From: Mycobacterium sp.
GTDB taxonomy: Bacteria > Actinomycetota > Actinomycetes > Mycobacteriales > Mycobacteriaceae
Strand: one strand, 5' to 3'
NCBI GenBank assembly: GCA_032159565.1
Contig: JAVHWR010000038.1
DNA length: 64,000 nt
Position 1 is the stretch's first letter, and each line of letters opens with the position of its first letter. This document shows positions 16,163-49,952 of the stretch, one piece after another. The notes below the pieces were generated by a model that saw only the letters and a list, made by a program, of their open reading frames with translations, was not told the DNA's origin and ran no database searches. Position numbers and translations under genes: made by a program.

Positions 16163-16570
16163 ATGGCTCAAGCCCAGAAAGCAACAGGCGCACCGAAGCA
16201 GGCCGGGCAGAGCGTGTCGGCGGCCCGCCGCACTTCGCGGCTGCGCAGGCACGCCCGGCTGCGCAAGAAGATCGAGGGGACGGCCGAGCGGCCGCGCCTG
16301 GTGGTCAACCGCTCCGCGCGGCACATCCACGTCCAGCTGGTCGACGACCTGAACGGCACAACGCTGGCCGCCGCGTCGTCCATCGAAGCCGATGTGCGCG
16401 GGGTGGACGGCGACAAGAAGGCCCACAGCACGCGGGTCGGTCAGCTGATCGCCGAGCGAGCCAAGGCCGCCGGGATCGAGACCGTCGTGTTCGACCGGGG
16501 TGGCTACACCTACGGCGGACGGCTCGCTGCGCTGGCCGACGCGGCACGCGAAGGTGGGCTGAAGTTCTAA
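16163..16570 (+). CDS. rplR: 50S ribosomal protein L18
   Basis: [38 protein letters not shown]. Confidence 0.98.
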
Positions 16571-16607
16571 TGACGAATGACCTCAAAACAATCGGAAGGA
16601 CTGCGTA

Positions 16608-17291
16608 ATGGCCGAGCAGGCAGCAGGAGCCGCCGGGCCTTCGAGTTCGGACGGAAGGCCGGCCCGCGGTGACCGCGAGGGCCGGGGCCGTCGTGACGAT
16701 CGTGGCGGTCGTCGCGACCGCGACGGCGGTGAGAAGAGTAACTACCTCGAGCGTGTCGTCACGATCAACCGCGTTTCCAAGGTGGTCAAGGGGGGGCGGC
16801 GCTTCAGCTTCACCGCGCTGGTCATCGTCGGCGACGGCAACGGCATGGTCGGTGTCGGCTACGGCAAGGCCAAGGAAGTTCCGGCCGCGATCGCCAAGGG
16901 CGTCGAGGAGGCACGCAAGGGCTTCTTCCGCGTTCCGCTGATCGGCCGCACCATCACGCACCCGGTGCAGGGTGAGGCGGCCGCTGGTGTGGTCATGCTG
17001 CGCCCGGCCAGCCCCGGCACCGGTGTGATCGCCGGTGGCGCGGCGCGTGCGGTGCTGGAATGCGCCGGCGTGCACGACATCCTGGCCAAGTCGCTGGGCA
17101 GTGACAACGCGATCAACGTGGTGCACGCCACCGTTGCCGCGCTGAAGCTGCTGCAGCGTCCCGAAGAGGTCGCGGCCCGCCGTGGCCTGCCCATCGAGGA
17201 CGTGGCGCCTGCCCGCATGCTCAGGGCCCGCCGTGAGGCCGACGCGTTGGCCGCAACCGCCAACGCCGCCGCACGCGAAGGATCGGCATAG
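16608..17291 (+). CDS. rpsE: 30S ribosomal protein S5
   Basis: [28 protein letters not shown]. Confidence 0.99.
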
Positions 17292-17293
17292 CC

Positions 17294-17482
17294 ATGGCAG
17301 AGCTGAAGATCACCCAGGTACGCAGCACGATCGGTGCCCGGTGGAAGCAGAGGGAAAGCCTGCGTTCGTTGGGACTGCGCAAGATCCGTCAGTCGGTCGT
17401 CCGTGAGGACAACGCGCAGACCCGCGGGCTCATCAACACGGTGCACCACCTCATCAAAGTAGAAGCGGTTGAAGGCGACTAA
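17294..17482 (+). CDS. rpmD: 50S ribosomal protein L30
   Basis: [25 protein letters not shown]. Confidence 0.98.
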
Positions 17483-40822: not shown

Positions 40823-41620
40823 ATGATCACCGTCCCGGGGCTGCGCACCCGCAAGGTCGTCGATCCGCGCACGCCAGCTGAACTCGACGCGATGGCCGCC
40901 GCAGGCGCGCTGGTCGCCGCCGCGCTGCATGCGGTGCGCAAGGCCGCCGCGCCCGGCGTATCCACGCTCGAACTCGACAACGTCGCCGAATCGGTGATCC
41001 GCGATGCCGGCGGCACCCCGTCCTTCCTGGGCTATCACGGCTTTCCCGCGAGCATCTGCTCGTCGGTGAACGACCGCGTCGTCCACGGAATCCCGGTTGC
41101 CACCGAGGTCCTCGCGGCCGGTGACCTGGTGTCCATCGACTGCGGTGCCATCCTCGACGGCTGGCACGGCGATTCGGCGATCACCTTCGGGATCGGGGCG
41201 CTCATCGGAGTCGACGAGGCGCTGTCGGCGGCCACCAGGGAGTCGATGGAGGCGGGCATCGCCGCGATGGTGCCCGGAAACCGGCTCACCGATGTCTCGC
41301 ACGCCATCGAGACCGCCACCCGGGCAGCCGAGAGGCGCTACGACCGCAGATTCGCTATCGTCGCGGGCTACGGCGGCCACGGCATAGGCAGGCGCATGCA
41401 TATGGACCCGTTTCTGCCGAACGAGGGCCAGCCGGGACGAGGGCCGCACCTGGTTGCCGGCTCCGTGCTGGCGATCGAACCGATGCTTACCCTCGGCACC
41501 TCGAAGACCGTCGTTCTCGCGGACGAGTGGACCGTTGTGACCGAAGACGGGTCGCGCGCCGCGCATTGGGAGCACACTGTTGCTGTCACCGACGGCGGAC
41601 CCCGGATTCTGACGGCCTGA
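40823..41620 (+). CDS. map: Methionine aminopeptidase type I
   Basis: CSSVND..VHGIP, SIDCG, HGDSA, GHGIG, AIEPM and AHWEHTV. Confidence 0.97.
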
Positions 41621-41623
41621 ATC

Positions 41624-41647
41624 GCCCGACTGCCCAGTTGGTCGGGC
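41624..41647 (+). terminator. Possible hairpin terminator after map
   Basis: GCCCGAC/GTCGGGC stem; no U tract. Confidence 0.4.
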
Positions 41648-41655
41648 AGAACAGG

Positions 41656-41680
41656 TGAACCCGATCGGCCTCGGCCTCGT
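41656..41680 (+). promoter_or_regulatory. SigL-type promoter of sigL (autoregulatory)
   Basis: TGAACC-N16-CGT, matching the recalled M. tuberculosis SigL consensus. Confidence 0.75.
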
Positions 41681-41699
41681 ATTAACGAGGGAGGTTGTA

Positions 41700-42212
41700 G
41701 TGGACGATCCGGAAGTCGCGCTAATGCGAGTGCTCTACCAAGAACACGGCCCAGCATTATGGCGCTATGCTGTGCGGCTTACCGGTGACCCGGCACGAGC
41801 AGAGGATGTAGTGCAAGAAACGTTGCTGCGGGCGTGGCAGCATCCAGAAGTGACCGACGGTGACCGTCCGGCGAGAGCTTGGTTGTTCACAGTCGCGCGC
41901 AATATGATCATCGACGAGCGGCGCAGCGCCAGGTTTCGAAACGAGGCCGGAACCCCGGACCCGGAAAAGACCTACGACCGCGCCGGACCGGATGAGGTGG
42001 ATTCCGCCTTGGACCGAATGTTGTTGAGCGGGGCCCTGGCACAGTTATCCGCAGAACACCGAGCGGTGGTCAAGCGGTCGTATTACCAGGGCTGGACGAC
42101 CGCCCAGATCGCTGCCGATCTTGACATTGCCGAAGGCACAGTTAAATCGAGGCTGCATTACGCTGTGCGCGCACTGCGCCTCACACTGCAGGAAATGGGG
42201 GTGACCCGATGA
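41700..42212 (+). CDS. sigL: ECF sigma factor SigL
   Basis: AEDVVQETLLRAWQH, WLFTVARN, GTVKSRLHYAVR; directly after map as in Rv0735. Confidence 0.93.
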   Translation: MDDPEVALMRVLYQEHGPALWRYAVRLTGDPARAEDVVQETLLRAWQHPEVTDGDRPARAWLFTVARNMIIDERRSARFRNEAGTPDPEKTYDRAGPDEVDSALDRMLLSGALAQLSAEHRAVVKRSYYQGWTTAQIAADLDIAEGTVKSRLHYAVRALRLTLQEMGVTR

Positions 42213-42943
42213 CGCAACCGGCGAGACGCGATGACGATCTGCGCGGCGACGACCCGTACGCGACGTGGGATGCCGCCTACGTCCTCGGTTCACTATCGGG
42301 GGCCGAACGGCGGGAGTTCGAAGCGCACCTCGCATCCTGCCCGCGGTGCAGCGCGACCGTCGCCGAACTGAGCGGCATCCCTGCGTTGTTGGCTCAGTTG
42401 TCCGCCGAAGAAGTGGAAGCACTCGACGACCCGACGACGGCGGAAACACCGCCGCTGCGTACCGAGGTCCTCGACTCGCTGCTGCAGAAGGTCCAGTGGC
42501 GACGTCGCCGCACCCGCAGGCTCAGTGTGATCACGTTGGCCGCCGCCGCCGCGGTGTTGGCCGTCGCGCTGGTCGTCGGGATCCTGCCCGGTATCCGCGG
42601 GCATGGCGACGATACCGAGATGGCGTCCGCGGTAACGATGAGCAAGGTCGCGCAGACACCGATCAACGCCGCCGTCACGATGACGGGATTCGGCTGGGGC
42701 ACCCGGATCGACATGGTCTGCACCTATGGCGACTATGCGAGCCGCGGCGATGCGACGACGGAGAATCTGTCGATGGTTCTGTTGGACCACAACGGAACTC
42801 AGAGCGAGATCGCGACGTGGGTGGGCGTGAACGGCGCCACCGCGTTGCCGAGCGGGAACACGACGATGCAGAAGGACCAGATCAAGTCCGTGCAACTCGT
42901 CGATGCCAACACACGAGCGGTGCTGTTGCAAACAGATTTGTGA
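42209..42943 (+). CDS. rslA: Zinc-binding anti-sigma factor RslA
   Basis: DAAYVLGSL and EAHLASCPRC (HxxxCxxC); single TM helix; ATGA overlap with sigL. Confidence 0.9.
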   Translation: MTQPARRDDDLRGDDPYATWDAAYVLGSLSGAERREFEAHLASCPRCSATVAELSGIPALLAQLSAEEVEALDDPTTAETPPLRTEVLDSLLQKVQWRRRRTRRLSVITLAAAAAVLAVALVVGILPGIRGHGDDTEMASAVTMSKVAQTPINAAVTMTGFGWGTRIDMVCTYGDYASRGDATTENLSMVLLDHNGTQSEIATWVGVNGATALPSGNTTMQKDQIKSVQLVDANTRAVLLQTDL

Positions 42944-42957
42944 GTCCGGTCACGGAT

Positions 42958-42985
42958 TGAACCGTGGTCGCCCGAGGGTCGTGTC
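42958..42985 (+). promoter_or_regulatory. SigL-type promoter of the ThDP enzyme operon
   Basis: TGAACC-N16-CGTGTC, 28 nt upstream of ATG 43014. Confidence 0.8.
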
Positions 42986-43013
42986 ATCTGCAGGGTTGAG
43001 AGCAGGTGAATGA

Positions 43014-44735
43014 ATGGCCAGAACGCATCGGGTGGTGGACCACATTGTCGCCTATCTGGCGGCGTGCGGAGTCGAGTACGTCTTCGGCGTCGACGGCGCG
43101 AACATCGAGGATGTCTACGACGCCGCGCACTTCTGTGACGGCATCACCGCTGTACTGGCCAAACATGAGTTCTCCGCGGCGACCATGGCCGACGGGTTCA
43201 GCCGCAGCGGTGCCGGACTCGGCGTGGTGGCCGCAACCTCCGGTGGCGGCTGCCTGAACACAGTTGCCGGGCTTGGTGAGGCGCTGGCCAGCCGGGTGCC
43301 GGTGCTGGCGCTCATCGGCCAACCCCCAACGACTCTCGACGGCCGCGGCGCCTTCCAGGACACCAGCGGCCGAAACGGTGCGCTCAACGGTGAGGCCCTG
43401 TTCTCCGCGGTTTCGGTGTTCTGCCGTCGGATTTCGGCGCCCGAGGAGATCGCAACGGCGCTGCCGCAGGCCATCGCGGCCGCCAGACGAGGGGGACCGG
43501 CCGTACTGCTTCTGCCGAAGGACATTCAGCAGGCCGCCCTTGAACTTCGTAATTCGGTGAATAGAGCCACCAACGGTGTCGCGGTTGGAAGTCAACTAGG
43601 CGATCCGCAGGTGCTCGCACGGGCGCTGAGGCGCGCCGACGGTCCGATCACGATCATCGCCGGTGAGCAGGTTGCCCGCGACGATGCACGCGCCGAACTC
43701 GCGCAGCTGCGTTCCGTGCTGCGCGCCCGAGTTTCCACCGTTCCCGATGCGAAGGATGTCGCGGGCACGCCCGGGCTGGGCTCGTCCTCGGCACTGGGGG
43801 TGAGCGGCGTGATGGGACATCCCGCTGTCGCGACGGCGATCGCAGGCAGCGCGCTGTGCCTGGTGGTCGGCACGCAGCTGAGCGTCACCGCACGCGCGGG
43901 ACTGGACGACGTGCTGGCGTCGGTGCCGACGTACTCGATCGGCTCCGCGGTGCCGTTCGTGGCGTGCACGCACGTCCATACCGAGGACCTTCGTGGGTCG
44001 CTGAAGCTGCTGACGCAGGAATTGAACGGCGATGGCCGTCCGACCGGTATGCGTGTGCCGGACGAGGTGTCGAGGACCGAGCTGCAGCCGCCACCGCACG
44101 ACGGCCCTGGTGTGCGGTACCGCGAGGCGATGGCGGTGCTGGACGCCGCGCTGCCCGATGGCGTCGACATCGTGGTCGACGCGGGGAACATCGGCGCATC
44201 GGCGATCCATTACCTTCCTGCTCGCAGGGACGGGCGGTTCGTCGTCGCTCTCGGCATGGGCGGCATGGGATACAGCTTCGGCGCCGCGCTGGGAATCGCC
44301 TTCGGGCGTAACCGCCGGACCGTGGTCATCGCGGGCGACGGCTCATTCTTCATGCACGGTATGGAGATTCACACCGCCCTGCAGTACGGCCTGCCCGTCA
44401 CGTTCCTGCTCTTCGACAACCACGCGCACGCGATGTGCGTGACCCGCGAACAGCATTTCTACAACGATGTGTACAGCTACAACCGGTTCGGCCCGAGCCG
44501 GCTGGGCGCGGGCCTGGCGGCCATGTTCCCCGGTCTGTCGGCGGTCGACGTGGACACCATCGACGATCTGCCGACGGCGTTGCGGGCCGCCCTCGATGTC
44601 GACGGGCCGTCGGTCATCGCCGTCGAGTGCTCCGCCGACGAAATCCCGCCGTTCGCGGCCTTTCTCGGCAACGCGGCCGTGAAGAAACCTGTTATCGCAG
44701 AGGAGAGCAGTCCCCATGTCGTTGCCAGCGCTTGA
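43014..44735 (+). CDS. Thiamine diphosphate-dependent enzyme (acetolactate synthase/acyloin synthase-like)
   Basis: VFGVDG, KHE (catalytic Glu), TSGGG, GGMG and GDGSF...FDN ThDP motif. Confidence 0.92.
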   Translation: MARTHRVVDHIVAYLAACGVEYVFGVDGANIEDVYDAAHFCDGITAVLAKHEFSAATMADGFSRSGAGLGVVAATSGGGCLNTVAGLGEALASRVPVLALIGQPPTTLDGRGAFQDTSGRNGALNGEALFSAVSVFCRRISAPEEIATALPQAIAAARRGGPAVLLLPKDIQQAALELRNSVNRATNGVAVGSQLGDPQVLARALRRADGPITIIAGEQVARDDARAELAQLRSVLRARVSTVPDAKDVAGTPGLGSSSALGVSGVMGHPAVATAIAGSALCLVVGTQLSVTARAGLDDVLASVPTYSIGSAVPFVACTHVHTEDLRGSLKLLTQELNGDGRPTGMRVPDEVSRTELQPPPHDGPGVRYREAMAVLDAALPDGVDIVVDAGNIGASAIHYLPARRDGRFVVALGMGGMGYSFGAALGIAFGRNRRTVVIAGDGSFFMHGMEIHTALQYGLPVTFLLFDNHAHAMCVTREQHFYNDVYSYNRFGPSRLGAGLAAMFPGLSAVDVDTIDDLPTALRAALDVDGPSVIAVECSADEIPPFAAFLGNAAVKKPVIAEESSPHVVASA

Positions 44736-45387
44736 TGACATCACCGTCCACCGAGGCACAGCCGACCCGATCGACGGAGTGATTCGCGTCGAGACGTCGC
44801 CGAGGGAGAAGGCCACACCGATCATCATGGAGATGATGCGGTCGGTCTACCCGCATTACGAGGTCTTCGGAACATATTGCACCGTAAACGATTACATCGA
44901 CTGTCCGCCCGATGAGCTGTTCGACTACATGGCTGACACCCGTTGCCTGGAGGAGTGGACATACAGCCTGCGCGGGTTCGCGCCGACGGAAGAGCCGGGT
45001 CTGTGGGTGGCCTACGACAAGCTCGGCGGCGACAAGGGAAGCCCCATCTTCACCCGCACGGTGGCCAACAAGGAGGCCCGCACGGTCGACTATCACTGCG
45101 CGTGGGACCAGGGCAAACATCTGTGGATGATCTACGTGATGCGCATCATCGACGCGCAGGTGGTTTTCGACAAGCCCGGCTCCGTCGTGCTGTGGACGAA
45201 CTGTCACCACCCGTTCTACGACGAGAATCCGTATCCCGAGACTGCGCCGCCACAGCGTCCTGTGTGGGTCGGAGACTTCTGGGACATGTTCGGACCCGGA
45301 CACCTGCTGGAACTGAAGAACCTGAAGGCGATCGTCGAATACCGGCGCCGCAATGGCCTGCCGGTCACACCGGCCTGGATGAAGTGA
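44716..45387 (+). CDS. SRPBCC/START-fold (cyclase/aromatase-like) protein
   Basis: 223 aa; CPPDELFDYMADTRCLEEWT and VDYHCAW. Fold assignment from memory. Confidence 0.7.
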   Translation: MSLPALDDITVHRGTADPIDGVIRVETSPREKATPIIMEMMRSVYPHYEVFGTYCTVNDYIDCPPDELFDYMADTRCLEEWTYSLRGFAPTEEPGLWVAYDKLGGDKGSPIFTRTVANKEARTVDYHCAWDQGKHLWMIYVMRIIDAQVVFDKPGSVVLWTNCHHPFYDENPYPETAPPQRPVWVGDFWDMFGPGHLLELKNLKAIVEYRRRNGLPVTPAWMK

Positions 45388-45424
45388 GGACCCACCATGA
45401 CGACTGCGCACGCGAGGAGCGAAA

Positions 45425-46435
45425 ATGACCGTTAGCCTGCTTGACATCTCCACGTACCTGCCCGGGGAACCGGTCAGCGCCGAGTACTACGTCGGGTTCG
45501 CCGAAACAGACGAGTTGCGCGAGAACCTGATGTTCCGGGCGCCGAAGTTCCGCCATCACGTGGCCAAGGACGAGACGGCCATCGACATGGTGGAGCGGGC
45601 GGCCGCCGGCCTCGTCGAACGCCACGGCCAGGACACCATCGCCAACGCCGATGTATTGATCACCCACGTTCAGCTGCCGGACATGCCCTTCTACGGCAGC
45701 GGTGGCGGCATCGCGCATCGCCTTGGCATGAAACCGAATTGGGTGCTCGACCTGCACAACGGCGGGTGTGCCGCGTTCGTGCTGGCGATGAAAGTGGCTC
45801 GCTCCCTGATTGATTCGGGGCAGGCGGAGACGGCGCTGATCGCGGTCGCACAGAACGCGGCGGGCACCATATTCGACCAGGAGACCATCCGCTCCAAGGC
45901 GCAGTCGTCGGTGCCCGGCGACGGAGCCGCAGTGGGCCTGCTTGCACGGTCGGACAAGTCGCCGATCCTCGACATCGAATGCCGCACCTACGGCGAGTAC
46001 GCCGGTGACATGACCATCGCCGTCGACCCGGCTCGCAAATGGTGGGAGGCCGGCACCGGAGAAGGCTGCATCGGGTTCACCGAAAGCAAGATCACCAAGG
46101 TGCTGGCGCGCGGCAACCGCCAGGTGCCCGAGGTGTCGTACGCGGTCTGCGACCGGATCGGCATCAAGCCGGCGGATCTCGACCTTCTGGTGACCAACCA
46201 GCCGAACCGGGCGTTCCTGCGGAACTGGCGCGACGCGCTGGAACTGCCGAAGGAGAAGCATCGCGACACTTTCGAGCAATGCGGCAATCTGTTCGCCGCA
46301 GGTATTCCGGTCAATCTCGAGCGGGCCATCTCCGACGGCCAACTCAAGAAGGGCGATACGGCGCTGATGGCCGCCTTCGCGCATGCGGGCGACTTCGCAG
46401 GCGCCGCCGTGCTCAAGTGGGGCGGCCGGGAGTGA
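45425..46435 (+). CDS. 3-oxoacyl-ACP synthase III-like (thiolase fold) condensing enzyme
   Basis: DLHNGGCAAF (Cys115), GDGAA, TNQPN and CGNLFAA; C-terminal GAAVLKW. Confidence 0.88.
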   Translation: MTVSLLDISTYLPGEPVSAEYYVGFAETDELRENLMFRAPKFRHHVAKDETAIDMVERAAAGLVERHGQDTIANADVLITHVQLPDMPFYGSGGGIAHRLGMKPNWVLDLHNGGCAAFVLAMKVARSLIDSGQAETALIAVAQNAAGTIFDQETIRSKAQSSVPGDGAAVGLLARSDKSPILDIECRTYGEYAGDMTIAVDPARKWWEAGTGEGCIGFTESKITKVLARGNRQVPEVSYAVCDRIGIKPADLDLLVTNQPNRAFLRNWRDALELPKEKHRDTFEQCGNLFAAGIPVNLERAISDGQLKKGDTALMAAFAHAGDFAGAAVLKWGGRE

Positions 46436-47493
46436 TAGGAACAGCGAGGAGCGGTAAAACATCAGCGAGAGCGGACCTGGCAGAGGCGGTGTCCGCGCTG
46501 CCGAGCGCGGTGAACCCGTTGGCCTTGTCGCTCAACGAGAATCCTTTCCCGCCGCTGCCCGGAGTGCGGTCTGCGCTGAGGGAGTCCGTCGATGTGGCGA
46601 ACCGGTATCCGGAGTTTCTGCCCGAGCGGCTGCGCGCTTTGATCGCGGGCCATGTCGGGGTCCGCGAGGACCAGGTGGTGATCGGCGCCGGGGCCACCGG
46701 AGTGATCATGCAGGTGTTGAGCGCAGTGACCAGTCCGGGGGACCGGATGGTGATGACGTCGCCGACGTTCGACGGCTATCCGATCTTCGCGCACATGGCC
46801 CGCCTGCTTTCGGTCACCGTGGCGCTGGACGAGCACGGCCACCACGACCTCGATGCCATGGCTGAGGCGGCCGGCCATGCACGGGTCGTGGTGGTGTGCC
46901 GTCCGCACAATCCGACCGGCACCGTCGAGCCTGCCGCGGACATCGAGTTGTTCCTGCAGCGGGTGCCGTCGGACACCGTGGTCCTGCTGGATGAGGCCTA
47001 TGTCGAATTCCTTGCTCCCGAACATCGGCTCGATGCACTCTCGCTGGTCGAGCGGTTCCCCAATGTGGTCATACTGCGCACATTTTCGAAGGCCTACGGG
47101 TTGGCCGGCCTGCGCATCGGATACGGCTTCTGCGCACCCGATCTGGCCAGGAGACTGTGGACCATGCAGTTGCCGTTCGGTATCGGCATCACCGGTCTGG
47201 TGGCGGTCGCGGCGTCCTACGATGCAGAAAGTCAGCTGCAGCAACGGATTCGGATGATCGCATCGGAGCGACGGTATCTGCGGATGCGGCTGCATTCGAT
47301 GGGGGTGTACAGCACTGACAGCCATGCGAACTTCGTGTATCTGCCTACCAACAGTCGGCCGTGGAGCCAGTTCTTCGACGACACCGGTCTGCGAATCCGC
47401 GACTACGCCAATGGCAGCGTCCGGATAACCGTCGGCAATCGTCAGTCGACCAGGGCGGTGCTGAACGCACTGGAGCCATTCGCGTCGCGCTGA
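46432..47493 (+). CDS. HisC-like class I/II PLP aminotransferase
   Basis: LSLNENP, NRYP, PHNPTG, LDEAYVEF and RTFSKAYGLAGLRIGY; GTGA overlap. The start could be further downstream. Confidence 0.9.
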   Translation: MIGTARSGKTSARADLAEAVSALPSAVNPLALSLNENPFPPLPGVRSALRESVDVANRYPEFLPERLRALIAGHVGVREDQVVIGAGATGVIMQVLSAVTSPGDRMVMTSPTFDGYPIFAHMARLLSVTVALDEHGHHDLDAMAEAAGHARVVVVCRPHNPTGTVEPAADIELFLQRVPSDTVVLLDEAYVEFLAPEHRLDALSLVERFPNVVILRTFSKAYGLAGLRIGYGFCAPDLARRLWTMQLPFGIGITGLVAVAASYDAESQLQQRIRMIASERRYLRMRLHSMGVYSTDSHANFVYLPTNSRPWSQFFDDTGLRIRDYANGSVRITVGNRQSTRAVLNALEPFASR

Positions 47494-47533
47494 AATTCGT
47501 TCACCTCGGGCGTGGGCTGCGGTATGAAGAGTC

Positions 47534-48052
47534 GTGGACTCAGAATCGCCCACGGATCCGCACAAGCGGGATCCCATCGAGCTAGCGCGTGTCAACTGGG
47601 AACGCGCCGGCTGGGGTGACGTCTCGGACGGGATGGTCGCGGTCACGTCGGTGATGCGGGCCCACCAGATCCTGCTGGCCCGCGTCGAGAACGCGTTGCG
47701 GCCGTATGACCTCAGCTTCGCACGTTACGAGCTGCTACGGCTGCTGGCGTTCAGTCGCAACGGCGCGCTGCCGATCACCAAGGCGTCCGACCGGCTGCAG
47801 GTGCACGTCACCAGCGTGACGCATGCGATCCGTCGGCTGGAAGCACACGGGCTGGTGGAGCGGCTGCCCCACCCCACCGACGGCCGCACCACGCTGGTGC
47901 AGATCACCAAGCTCGGACGTTCCACCGTCGAGGACGCGACCGTGACGCTCAACAAGGAGGTCTTCGCCGACATCGGCCTCTCCGACGACGAATCGCGGGC
48001 GCTGGCGGCATCGATCGAAACGCTACGGCGCAACGCCGGCGACTTCTCCTAG
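47534..48052 (+). CDS. MarR-family regulator (Rv0737-like)
   Basis: DPIELARVNWERAGW, LSFARYELL, HVTSVT and HPTDGRTTL. Confidence 0.9.
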   Translation: MDSESPTDPHKRDPIELARVNWERAGWGDVSDGMVAVTSVMRAHQILLARVENALRPYDLSFARYELLRLLAFSRNGALPITKASDRLQVHVTSVTHAIRRLEAHGLVERLPHPTDGRTTLVQITKLGRSTVEDATVTLNKEVFADIGLSDDESRALAASIETLRRNAGDFS

Positions 48053-49278
48053 TCCGCGACGTTGGGCAGCGGGATCGTCGCCGTGACGGCCGTCCCCGCG
48101 CCGGGTCGCGATCTGATGTTGAGCCTGCCGCCGACGATCTCGGCGCGTTCGGCCATCGACAGCAAGCCGTAGCCGCCCATCTCGTCGCTGCCCAGGGGGT
48201 GCTCGAATGTGTCGAAGCCGACCCCGTCGTCGACGATCTCCAGTCGCGCCGTGTCGTCGTCGACCGCGAACATCAGCCGCGCCGTCGACGCACCGGCGTG
48301 TTTGACGACGTTTTGCAGGCATTCCTGCGCGATGCGATACAGCGCGAGTTCGACGTGGTCGGGCAACCGCTTCTCAGCGAGTTCGACCTTGACTTCGATC
48401 TGCCCTATCGAGCGCGCCAGGCTGGCCAGCCCACCCGCCAGGCCGAGGTCGTCGAGCACCGGCGGCCGCAGGCCGCTGATCGCCGCGCGCGCTTCCTGCA
48501 GTGTCAGATCGACGAGTTCCCTTGCGATGTCCAGCTGTTCAGCCATCGCCGTAGAGTCGGTTTGCGCGACGCGCGAAGCCGCGTCGAGCCGATAGGACAG
48601 GGTGATCAGCCGCTGCGAGATGCCATCGTGGATGTCGGCCGCCAAGCGGCGACGCTCGAGCTCCTGGGCCTCGATGACCTGCTCGACGAAATTCTCGTGC
48701 GCGCGTTCGCGAGCGACCAGTTGCCGGTGCAGGCGCGCCTGGTGCAGCGCTCCGGCGATCAACCGACCGATCACCAACAGCAATTCCACATCGCCGGAGG
48801 TGAACTCGCGCCGCGCGACGGTGTGCACGTTGAGCACACCGACCAGACCGCCGGGATCGGTTTCCATCGGCACCGACACCATCGACGTGAAATCTGAACC
48901 GCGAAGCGACTGGAACGGCATGTACCGCGGATCGGATTCCTTGTCGTGGGTGATGACGACCGGCTCCCGATGGCTGGCCACCCAGCCGGAGACACCCGAA
49001 CCGAGCGGAAGCCGGATCTTGCCGACCTCGCTGTCGAACGGCGGCGTCGCCCCGGCAAGGGTCAGCGACCGGTCGCTGTCGTCGAGGACGTGCACAAAGC
49101 AGACGTCGGTGGCGGTGGCCGCGGTGATCATCTTGGCGGCTGCCGCGGCGAGCGGTTCGACGCCGGGGCCGCTGGACGCCGCCTGGATCAGTTCACGCAA
49201 CAGCGCGAGCTCGCGGTCGGCGTCGACGAGATCGCGAACCGCGTTCGGCCGCAACGGGCCTCCACCAACTGGAGTCAT
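48049..49278 (-). CDS. GAF-domain sensor histidine kinase (HisKA_3)
   Basis: N-terminal GAF; ERRRLAADIHD H-box; QECLQNVVKHA, DDGVGF and YGLLSM. Confidence 0.92.
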   Translation of the reverse strand: MTPVGGGPLRPNAVRDLVDADRELALLRELIQAASSGPGVEPLAAAAAKMITAATATDVCFVHVLDDSDRSLTLAGATPPFDSEVGKIRLPLGSGVSGWVASHREPVVITHDKESDPRYMPFQSLRGSDFTSMVSVPMETDPGGLVGVLNVHTVARREFTSGDVELLLVIGRLIAGALHQARLHRQLVARERAHENFVEQVIEAQELERRRLAADIHDGISQRLITLSYRLDAASRVAQTDSTAMAEQLDIARELVDLTLQEARAAISGLRPPVLDDLGLAGGLASLARSIGQIEVKVELAEKRLPDHVELALYRIAQECLQNVVKHAGASTARLMFAVDDDTARLEIVDDGVGFDTFEHPLGSDEMGGYGLLSMAERAEIVGGRLNIRSRPGAGTAVTATIPLPNVAD

Positions 49279-49952
49279 TGGAAGATTCCCTCGCGCAGTG
49301 CGGTGGCGACGGCGCCGGTGCGGTCACTGACGCCGAGCTTGCGGTAGATCGACCGCAGGTGCGTCTTCACTGTCTCGTCGCCGATGACCAGCTTGCCTGC
49401 GATGCCCCGGTTGGACAGGCCGTTGACGACGAGCGAAAGAATCTCGCTCTCGCGCTGGGTGAGCCCTTGCCGTGCCCCCGGCCAGAACTCGTCGCGCTGC
49501 ATCCTGGCCGCCGTGTCGGCTGCCCTGGCGGCCATGCCCGGATCGATGGCGGTCGCGCCCCGGTGCGCGAATTCGAGCTGGCGCACCAGTTCGTCGCTGC
49601 TGATGCTCTTCAAGAGGTATCCCGCTGCGCCGACCCGCAAAGCCTGAAAGAGGTATTGCTCGTCGTCGTAGACCGACAACATGACGACCTTTCGATCCGA
49701 TCGGCGCTCGCGCAGCGTCTGACACAGGTCAAGGCCGCTTGAACCCTGCATTCGAACGTCGGACAGCACGATGTCGGGATCGAGTTCGTCGACCACGCTG
49801 AGCGCTCGCTCAGCGCCGATGGCCTGCCCTACCACCGCCACCCGGTCGGAGAACGCAGCGAGCATCGCCTTGAGACCCTCGATGACCATTTCATGGTCGT
49901 CCACCAAGACGATTCGTACTGGTCTGGAGGCGAGCGGGTTGTCGGACGCCAT
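49275..49952 (-). CDS. NarL/LuxR-family response regulator
   Basis: LVDDH, SDVRM, YLLKS; LTQRESEIL...TVKTH HTH. Confidence 0.94.
   Translation of the reverse strand: MASDNPLASRPVRIVLVDDHEMVIEGLKAMLAAFSDRVAVVGQAIGAERALSVVDELDPDIVLSDVRMQGSSGLDLCQTLRERRSDRKVVMLSVYDDEQYLFQALRVGAAGYLLKSISSDELVRQLEFAHRGATAIDPGMAARAADTAARMQRDEFWPGARQGLTQRESEILSLVVNGLSNRGIAGKLVIGDETVKTHLRSIYRKLGVSDRTGAVATALREGIFQ

Follow-up and report, generated by a model that had tools for sequence, protein, structure and literature searches.

The extracytoplasmic function (ECF) sigma factor SigL is needed for the virulence of Mycobacterium tuberculosis, and its regulon is small. PMC4105308, following Hahn 2005, lists sigL-rslA, mpt53, pks10-pks7, and Rv1139c-Rv1138c in this regulon. 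The M. tuberculosis anti-sigma factor RslA binds zinc through an H-x3-C-x2-C motif, and the disulfide formed upon oxidation loosens its hold on SigL (PMC2877774). In Streptomyces, a core set of enzymes known from the carquinostatin (Cqs) and neocarazostatin (Nzs) clusters converts tryptophan, pyruvate, and a 3-hydroxyacyl thioester into a carbazole skeleton (PMC7466098). A four-gene operon in which these two systems appear to meet is described here. It stands directly behind sigL-rslA in a 64,000-nucleotide stretch of DNA (the window) from contig JAVHWR010000038.1 of Mycobacterium sp., a soil mycobacterium (assembly GCA_032159565.1), and it encodes a thiamine diphosphate (ThDP)-dependent enzyme, a small cyclase, an enzyme resembling 3-oxoacyl-acyl carrier protein (ACP) synthase III (KAS III), and an aminotransferase. 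It is proposed, with a probability of roughly 65%, that a SigL-dependent promoter drives a minimal and diverged carbazole-forming operon with a diverged condensing enzyme. The proposal is built on the anatomy of the operon, the homology of its products, the conservation of its promoter, and the tie of that promoter to sigL linkage.

The link to carbazole biosynthesis begins with the cyclase. When its sequence was searched against the Protein Data Bank (PDB), the sole match was CqsB2, the carbazole synthase of Streptomyces exfoliatus (6IPV; E=8.4e-45). An AlphaFold model made from 21 sequences (mean predicted local distance difference test score 87) also placed 6IPV at the top of a Foldseek search (E=7e-19, 40% identity), and the matches that followed started at 5e-07 and were generic Bet v1/START proteins such as PYR/PYL receptors and aromatase/cyclases. 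The catalytic residues proposed for CqsB2 are Glu105, Tyr144, Tyr172, His206, and Glu209 (review PMC7466098). Their equivalents in the mycobacterial protein are Asp101, Tyr140, Tyr168, His196, and Glu199, four of the five being identical, and Asp replaces Glu105 here and in most of the cyclase family. This family is small, with 173 representatives at 50% identity among 1.84 billion proteins.

For the operon as a whole, the comparison was made with a locus of Streptomyces achromogenes that encodes a CqsB2 homologue and whose other proteins were named by position. Its gene order (KAS III, CqsB2, ThDP enzyme, SQS_PSY prenyltransferase, KAS III, ACP, aminotransferase, NUDIX, P450) is the published carquinostatin order. 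The ThDP enzyme shares 34% identity over its full length with the protein in the CqsB3 position (2e-76), the cyclase 42% with CqsB2 (2e-48), and the aminotransferase 42% with the protein in the CqsB7 position (8e-86). The KAS III-like enzyme matches the CqsB1 position (27%, 9e-42) and the CqsB5 position (26%, 9e-17). In the reverse search against the mycobacterial genome, each Streptomyces protein matched the operon and its paralogue first, which gives four reciprocal best hits. Together with the cyclase match, these point to the operon as the counterpart of the CqsB3-B2-B1-B7 (NzsH-I-J-D) core. The preliminary description of the window had looked to furanolide and dialkylresorcinol pathways for the closest analogies; the carbazole core is nearer.

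In the ThDP enzyme Glu52 and GDG441-443...DN468-469 are present, and the best PDB matches are BbmA (8X3X/8X3Y/8XOD; 1.5e-50) and CsmA (8X3Z; 9e-39), whose pathway was not found in the searchable literature. The Lys220 of the aminotransferase lies in an FSKAYG motif. Names of acetolactate synthase, FabH, and HisC suggested by Pfam and NCBIfam were rejected as functional calls, their scores being below cut-off; the NCBIfam acetolactate synthase model gave 193 bits on the ThDP enzyme (cut-off 538) and the hisC-type model for histidinol-phosphate transaminase gave 306 bits on the aminotransferase (cut-off 374). A natural fusion of a CqsB1-like KAS III with a CqsB2-like cyclase also exists in a public collection (P0149, 587 aa), and its KAS III has the canonical His.

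The promoter is the second element of the argument. The motif TGAACC-N16-CGTGTC stands before the operon as had been noted. The same motif had been claimed for sigL, which is correct for the -35 hexamer and the spacing and incorrect for the -10, which reads CGTATT rather than CGTGTC. The sigma-L -10 element has been defined experimentally as C-G followed by T(-12), G(-11), N, C/A(-9), A(-8), and G(-7) (PMC6372665), and the -10 region of the operon, CGTGTCAT, matches it through -8. Within the window a loose form of the motif occurs 5 times against 2.4 expected, which is not significant by itself. In the 6.24-Mb genome, where base composition alone would give about 1.7 occurrences, the strict form TGAACC-N16-CGT[GA]T[CT] was found 9 times, and six of the nine matches lie 6-62 nt before the start of an open reading frame (ORF), besides sigL's own site. 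Behind the latter no ORF was called under the 60-aa ORF rule, because sigL starts only 16 nt downstream. The marked genes (sigL, the operon, a type III polyketide synthase (PKS), an MMPL transporter, a short-chain dehydrogenase, a cupredoxin lipoprotein, and a small secreted protein; Table 1) constitute the predicted SigL regulon of the species. As the M. tuberculosis regulon includes pks10-pks7, the motif before the pks10-like gene is an independent sign that it is a SigL promoter here.

Related loci allow the promoter to be followed across species. Twenty loci from genomes of the family and 80 named loci were compared. The closest relatives of the window's locus are those of Mycolicibacterium stellerae (95%) and Mycobacterium barrassiae (93%), and other loci of the named set come from M. 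agri, M. wolinskyi, M. peregrinum, M. septicum, and M. shimoidei. The arrangement seen most often, map-sigL-rslA-ThDP-cyclase-KAS-aminotransferase-MarR, was found in 45 of the 80 named loci as called, and in more when split hits are counted; sigL-rslA lies just upstream of the operon in three other genera too (L043, L046, and L048). The site before the ThDP gene was scored as an exact TGAAC[CT]-N16-CGTnTn in the 93 related loci with enough upstream sequence, 69 of which are linked to sigL and 24 unlinked. It is present in 64 of the linked loci, the remaining five being one base off, and in only three of the unlinked copies (Fisher p=3e-13, a value that overstates independence, as the compared loci share descent). 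Across 71 distinct operon promoters, selected by pattern, the -35 carries 1.9 bits of information per position and the -10 carries 1.7; the spacer, by comparison, has 0.56 and the flanks have 0.4-0.6. The consensus is TGAACC-N16-tCGTGTCA. Upstream of every one of the 68 sigL genes checked, TGAAC[CT] and CGTnnn stand about 16 nt before the start, separated by 16 nt (17 nt in one case). Their -10 varies, with CGTATC in 21, CGTGTC in 16, and CGTATT in 9 behind a TGAACC -35 (24, 21, and 11 when TGAACT variants are included). Because the loci are related and the sites were chosen by pattern, it is the divergence of the spacers and the contrast between linked and unlinked copies that carry the argument, not the p-value. 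The SigL-type promoter proposed in the preliminary description is conserved wherever the operon adjoins sigL-rslA, and SigL-type control of the operon is judged likely from these sequences. No SigL transcriptome from an operon-carrying species was found in the searchable literature.

The positions of these features are collected in Table 1. On re-reading the sequence, the coordinates and gene calls given earlier for the four-gene operon adjoining sigL were confirmed, as were its placement between rslA and the MarR gene and the four enzyme classes, including the SRPBCC fold of the protein that matches no Pfam or NCBIfam model. The genes had been described as overlapping or abutting, and this is accurate: the ThDP and cyclase genes overlap by 20 nt, a gap of 37 nt separates the cyclase from the KAS III gene, and the KAS III and aminotransferase genes share a GTGA overlap. 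The gap from rslA to the operon (span 43014-47493) is 70 nt. No plus-strand terminator was predicted in 41500-48300, from sigL through the end of the MarR gene, and a plus-strand scan for sigma-70 promoters and terminators gave nothing useful. The SigL protein scores 269 bits against NCBIfam NF007227 (cut-off 202). A second sigL-like ECF sigma gene, 53% identical, is found elsewhere in the genome (C121:19231-19725, minus strand). Convergent with the MarR gene, a GAF/HisKA_3 histidine kinase and a LuxR-type response regulator occupy 48049-49952 of the window on the minus strand, and the kinase gene shares 4 nt with the MarR gene at their stop codons.

Table 1. Features of the sigL-linked locus, its paralogues, and other genes behind a strict SigL-type motif. 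Positions are those of the window unless preceded by the number of another contig (C) of the same genome.
Feature	Position	Strand	Remarks
map	40823-41620		Gene upstream of sigL
sigL-rslA promoter (putatively autoregulatory, SigL)	41656-41683	+	TGAACC-N16-CGTATT; ends 16 nt before sigL GTG
sigL, ECF sigma factor	41700-42212	+	170 aa from GTG 41700; Shine-Dalgarno GGGAGG; Pfam Sigma70_r2 and r4
rslA, membrane anti-sigma factor	42209-42943	+	Pfam zf-HC2; zinc/redox motif H40-x3-C44-x2-C47
Operon promoter, SigL-type (predicted)	42958-42985	+	TGAACC -35 (42958-42963), 16-nt spacer, CGTGTC -10 (42980-42985), then A; 28 nt before ATG 43014
ThDP-dependent acyloin synthase, CqsB3/NzsH counterpart	43014-44735	+	573 aa; Pfam TPP_enzyme_N/M/C
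CqsB2-family carbazole-synthase-like cyclase	44716-45387	+	223 aa; Bet v1/SRPBCC fold; no Pfam/NCBIfam match
KAS III-like condensing enzyme, CqsB1/NzsJ counterpart	45425-46435	+	336 aa; Pfam ACP_syn_III and ACP_syn_III_C
HisC-like class I/II aminotransferase, CqsB7/NzsD counterpart	46432-47493	+	353 aa from GTG 46432; Pfam Aminotran_1_2; pyridoxal phosphate Lys220
MarR-family regulator, Rv0737/Ms_1492 orthologue	47534-48052	+	Pfam MarR; flanks operon
Paralogous ThDP gene	C155:138-1856	-	No SigL motif upstream
Paralogous cyclase, 5' end	C154:2-154	-	Shares cyclase 5' end with C155
Paralogous cyclase, KAS, then AMP-binding enzyme	C177:5571-7258	-	
Paralogous aminotransferase, then flavin monooxygenase-like ORF and MMPL-like ORF	C88:201-1190	+	
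Type III PKS, pks10-like	C17:32677-33747	-	Chalcone-synthase domains; strict SigL-type motif upstream
MMPL transporter	C201:59507-61888	-	Strict SigL-type motif upstream
Short-chain dehydrogenase	C119:32118-32864	-	Strict SigL-type motif upstream
Cupredoxin lipoprotein	C207:2106-2498	+	Strict SigL-type motif upstream
Small secreted protein, 110 aa	C196:2852-3184	+	Strict SigL-type motif upstream

The carbazole reading has to be weighed against a number of observations that count against it. The identities to the Streptomyces enzymes are modest (27-42%), and neither a dedicated ACP nor a second (CqsB5-type) KAS III was found in the operon or its flanks; the best CqsB5-like match in the genome lies on a different contig, C101. 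In the cyclase tree the Mycobacteriales proteins group tightly in a single clade that is distant from the Streptomyces carbazole synthases, and other uncharacterised lineages branch between the two. The triad of the KAS III-like enzyme is Cys115-Asn258-Asn288, in a motif TNQPN where FabH has HQAN. Alignments to four solved FabH structures confirm the position of this His-to-Asn change, which occurs in 95 of the 95 Mycobacteriales orthologues extracted, while the catalytic His is kept in the Streptomyces CqsB1-type protein and in the fusion P0149. As every orthologue has the change, the condensation chemistry may differ. The operon was not filed as a plain member of the core because the ACP, second KAS III, prenyltransferase, and P450 are missing, the KAS His is Asn, and the cyclase clade is separate. 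On the regulatory side, the window's own sigL site, CGTATTAA, has A at -11, the position of strongest sigma-L specificity, and the shared descent of the loci tempers the statistics given above. In the searchable literature no gene cluster has been assigned to the lipocarbazoles and no carbazole has been reported from Mycobacterium.

Some of these departures would also fit a different product of the same enzyme logic, a possibility that is considered rather unlikely. The pathway could start from another aromatic or branched 2-oxo acid, the KAS III could act as an acyltransferase only (giving acylated acyloins of the xenocyloin/sattabacin type), or a non-carbazole ring could be formed, with the cyclase-like protein serving as a chaperone or as a cyclase of other regiochemistry. 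Besides the altered triad and the separate deep clade, this would account for the Asp in place of cyclase Glu105 and for the ThDP enzyme being only 34% identical to its counterpart, and the aminotransferase is nearly as close to another HisC-like gene of the genome. Against it, the cyclase retains its entire fold and four of the five catalytic residues, the published ring closure uses the indole C2 nucleophile (PMC7466098), and a genus that is putatively Tsukamurella, a known source of carbazoles, has one such cluster in each sampled genome. It is improbable that the operon is biosynthetic while TGAACC-N16-CGTGTC is a relic, with transcription coming from sigL-rslA read-through or from another sigma factor. 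The short gap behind rslA, in which no terminator is predicted, would permit this, and two G-quadruplex ligands are reported to induce MSMEG_1488, in a paper that draws no connection to SigL (PMC8931766). Yet the hexamers are invariant among diverged spacers in the 71 distinct promoters, the motif is absent from 21 of the 24 unlinked copies, the -10 agrees with the experimentally defined element through -8, and read-through from the sigL promoter would itself be SigL-dependent. A furanolide-type or dialkylresorcinol-type pathway shares the enzyme classes (ThDP acyloin synthase, KAS III, and small cyclase) and weak NCBIfam StlD/DarB matches exist; these are far below cut-off (NF053539 DarB, 20 bits against 550; NF005293 StlD/DarB, 29 bits against 450), CqsB2 is the cyclase's only solved relative, and each of the four genes has its reciprocal best hit in the carbazole set, so that such a pathway is highly improbable. 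Least credible is a function in primary metabolism or catabolism, such as an acetolactate synthase working with a HisC enzyme on amino acids. It is suggested by the top NCBIfam names, acetolactate synthase and histidinol-phosphate transaminase, which are far below their curated cut-offs; a small subunit of acetolactate synthase is missing, a CqsB2-type cyclase and a KAS III are encoded in tight coupling with these genes, and paralogues lie beside exporters and tailoring enzymes.

The cyclase is widespread among the relatives of this strain. It was found in 62 of 201 sampled genomes of the family, covering 15 of 34 genera, in 147 of 201 genomes of the genus (about 73%), and in at least 583 species genomes of a named collection. 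Gordonia, Williamsia, Nocardia, Rhodococcus, Mycolicibacter, and Tsukamurella are sources of named homologues. The genome of the strain itself has one or two additional ThDP-cyclase-KAS(-aminotransferase) sets, whose parts lie at the ends of different contigs. Contigs C154 and C155 end in the same cyclase 5' end and differ upstream, the ThDP gene being on C155 only; the pair is either an assembly fork or a recent duplication. A ThDP enzyme (C182:8253-9740, minus strand; 29% identical to the CqsB3-type protein) and a KAS III-like gene (16327-17355, minus strand) lie about 7 kb apart with no cyclase match, and they may form a different acyloin-type locus.

Operon copies that are not linked to sigL have other neighbours. 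In the same genus (L035:7840-17185 and L039:1291-11895), ThDP, cyclase, and KAS genes are found with genes for a fatty acyl-AMP-ligase-type enzyme, an MMPL protein, an O-methyltransferase, a methyltransferase, and a P450. In other genera (L041 and L044), an EryCIII-like glycosyltransferase, LuxR regulators, and an alpha/beta hydrolase adjoin. These neighbours are typical tailoring and export genes of a putative lipophilic secondary metabolite. Known tailoring reactions of carbazoles include O-methylation and P450 hydroxylation (PMC7466098; PMC11610953). A putative MerR-type regulator, called from its N-terminus alone, ends the unlinked clusters in L035 and L039, and a short Polyketide_cyc2 ORF lies just upstream of the ThDP gene in L041.

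Loss of the operon was surveyed in eight genomes of the genus that lack the cyclase and have the MarR gene. In four of them sigL, rslA, and the MarR gene are directly adjacent. This is the state of M. tuberculosis, where Rv0737 directly follows rslA, as had been stated in the preliminary description and is borne out by PMC13002591, so that the locus has no copy of the operon. In three others (L134, L135, and L138; genomes G201, G205, and G222) map and the MarR gene are adjacent, and sigL, rslA, and the operon are all gone from the locus. In the last (L140; G230), map and the MarR gene are separated by an unexplained stretch of about 1.2 kb. Since sigL linkage occurs in other genera too, repeated loss is more parsimonious than repeated gain, and the joint loss of sigL, rslA, and the operon supports their functional coupling. 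Two further genomes of the genus, G328 (3.3 Mb, complete) and G356 (3.2 Mb, a draft of about 100 contigs), matched the cyclase only weakly (4e-35 and 1e-43) and the MarR protein not at all; the weak matches may be decayed remnants in reduced genomes.

The MarR gene is 83-88% identical across the genus and always closes the block on its right side. Rv0737 and its M. smegmatis orthologue Ms_1492 bind the sigL-rslA promoter and do not bind the Ms_1488 promoter fragment (PMC13002591), and MSMEG_1486 is annotated as a sigma-70-family factor (PMC5445863). By gene numbering, the operon in M. smegmatis should be MSMEG_1488-1491 (PMC13002591; PMC5445863). One passing mention of MSMEG_1488-1491 was all that was found in the literature.

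Further support for a carbazole product comes from Tsukamurella. In one genus of the family, all ten sampled genomes carry exactly one ThDP-CqsB2-KAS cluster of the same clade. The cyclase of one of its loci, L047, has its best named match in Tsukamurella sp. 8F (83% identical), which is the basis for calling the genus Tsukamurella. Tsukamurella pseudospumae is the source of the lipocarbazoles, which are 3-oxygenated antioxidative carbazoles (Schneider et al. 2009, as cited in PMC7466098 and PMC11387468). From this, we infer that the Tsukamurella cluster may encode the lipocarbazole pathway. By extension, the Mycobacteriales clade would use tryptophan, pyruvate, and fatty acyl thioesters from the cell's own pools to make 1-alkyl-2-methyl oxygenated carbazoles that resemble the lipocarbazoles. 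In line with long acyl donors, CqsB1 and CqsB2 accept 3-hydroxyacyl-CoAs up to 3-hydroxymyristoyl-CoA (C14), and enzymes related to them are thought to use plain acyl-ACPs (PMC7466098).

The preliminary description had envisaged the conversion of an amino-acid-derived 2-oxo acid and an acyl thioester into a stress-induced small molecule. By homology this is right in outline, and the specific homologue had been missed. The substrates, the product, and the dependence on SigL are proposed from the comparisons above, and the individual steps are predicted by homology with CqsB7, CqsB3, CqsB1, and CqsB2. The HisC-like aminotransferase would convert tryptophan to indole-3-pyruvate, the KAS III-like enzyme would carry out a decarboxylative condensation with an acyl thioester, and the CqsB2-like cyclase would close ring A. 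As there is no dedicated ACP, the acyl group probably comes from a fatty or 3-hydroxy-fatty acyl-CoA or from acyl-ACP in the pools of the cell. The predicted product is a 1-alkyl-2-methyl oxygenated carbazole, redox-active and lipophilic, and a SigL-induced lipocarbazole-like metabolite is considered most likely. RslA would hold SigL at the membrane by a zinc/CxxC switch, and released SigL would transcribe sigL-rslA, the operon, and a small number of genes for envelope or polyketide functions. Radical scavenging is known for bacterial carbazole-3,4-quinones and related compounds (PMC7466098), and with the redox motif in RslA, a redox-released sigma factor that induces an antioxidant carbazole would make a coherent reading.

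A broader and decidedly speculative proposal is that the SigL-RslA redox switch exists largely to induce a membrane-soluble lipocarbazole that serves as antioxidant or redox shuttle. In such a scheme, map-[sigL-rslA-operon]-marR would be an ancestral stress module of mycolic-acid bacteria, of which the M. tuberculosis lineage kept the regulators and lost the chemistry; the MarR protein (Rv0737/Ms_1492) might sense the product or a quinone, and the invariant Cys-Asn-Asn KAS III might be a new variant for long-chain acyl donors. If the carbazole reading is true, a block tied to sigL-rslA in most mycobacteria, and lost by the tubercle bacillus, produces a lipid-soluble metabolite of the carbazole type that is probably an antioxidant. 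Its pathway would be the first of this kind beyond rare Streptomyces strains to be placed in a defined stress regulon; neither a mycobacterial carbazole pathway nor its link to SigL is reported in the searchable literature. It would also supply candidate genes for the Tsukamurella lipocarbazoles, and the Cys-Asn-Asn KAS III is a natural variant for enzymology. Because the operon is present in most sampled species and, by numbering, also in M. smegmatis, its function and regulation are directly testable.

Compared with known systems, the locus combines shared and distinct features. Xenocyloins and cyanobacterin-type furanolides are products of acyloin pathways that pair a ThDP enzyme with a KAS III. 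These pathways likewise use a ThDP acyloin synthase on arylpyruvates followed by a KAS III-like enzyme, and they are not known to include a CqsB2-type cyclase; by sequence, the operon is nearer to the carbazole set. As regards SigL, the -35, the spacing, and the -10 architecture are the same as in M. tuberculosis, and here too the motif precedes sigL, a pks10-like PKS, and an MMPL gene; the operon would be a regulon member specific to non-tuberculous mycobacteria. The lipocarbazole producer Tsukamurella is also a mycolic-acid actinomycete, and the genus that is putatively Tsukamurella has a cluster of the same clade; in L047 this cluster, unlike the operon, has no adjacent aminotransferase and no sigL linkage. 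With the carquinostatin/neocarazostatin core the operon shares the four enzyme types, clustered and co-oriented, and the cyclase fold with its Tyr, Tyr, His, and Glu. The order is ThDP, cyclase, KAS, and aminotransferase here and KAS, cyclase, ThDP ... aminotransferase in Streptomyces, whose prenyltransferase, NUDIX, and P450 genes have no counterparts in the operon. The KAS triad is Cys-Asn-Asn rather than Cys-His-Asn, and the cyclase has Asp where the Streptomyces enzyme has Glu105. Finally, the Streptomyces core occurs in rare strains, whereas the mycobacterial operon is predicted to lie under an ECF sigma factor and is carried by about 73% of the species of its genus.

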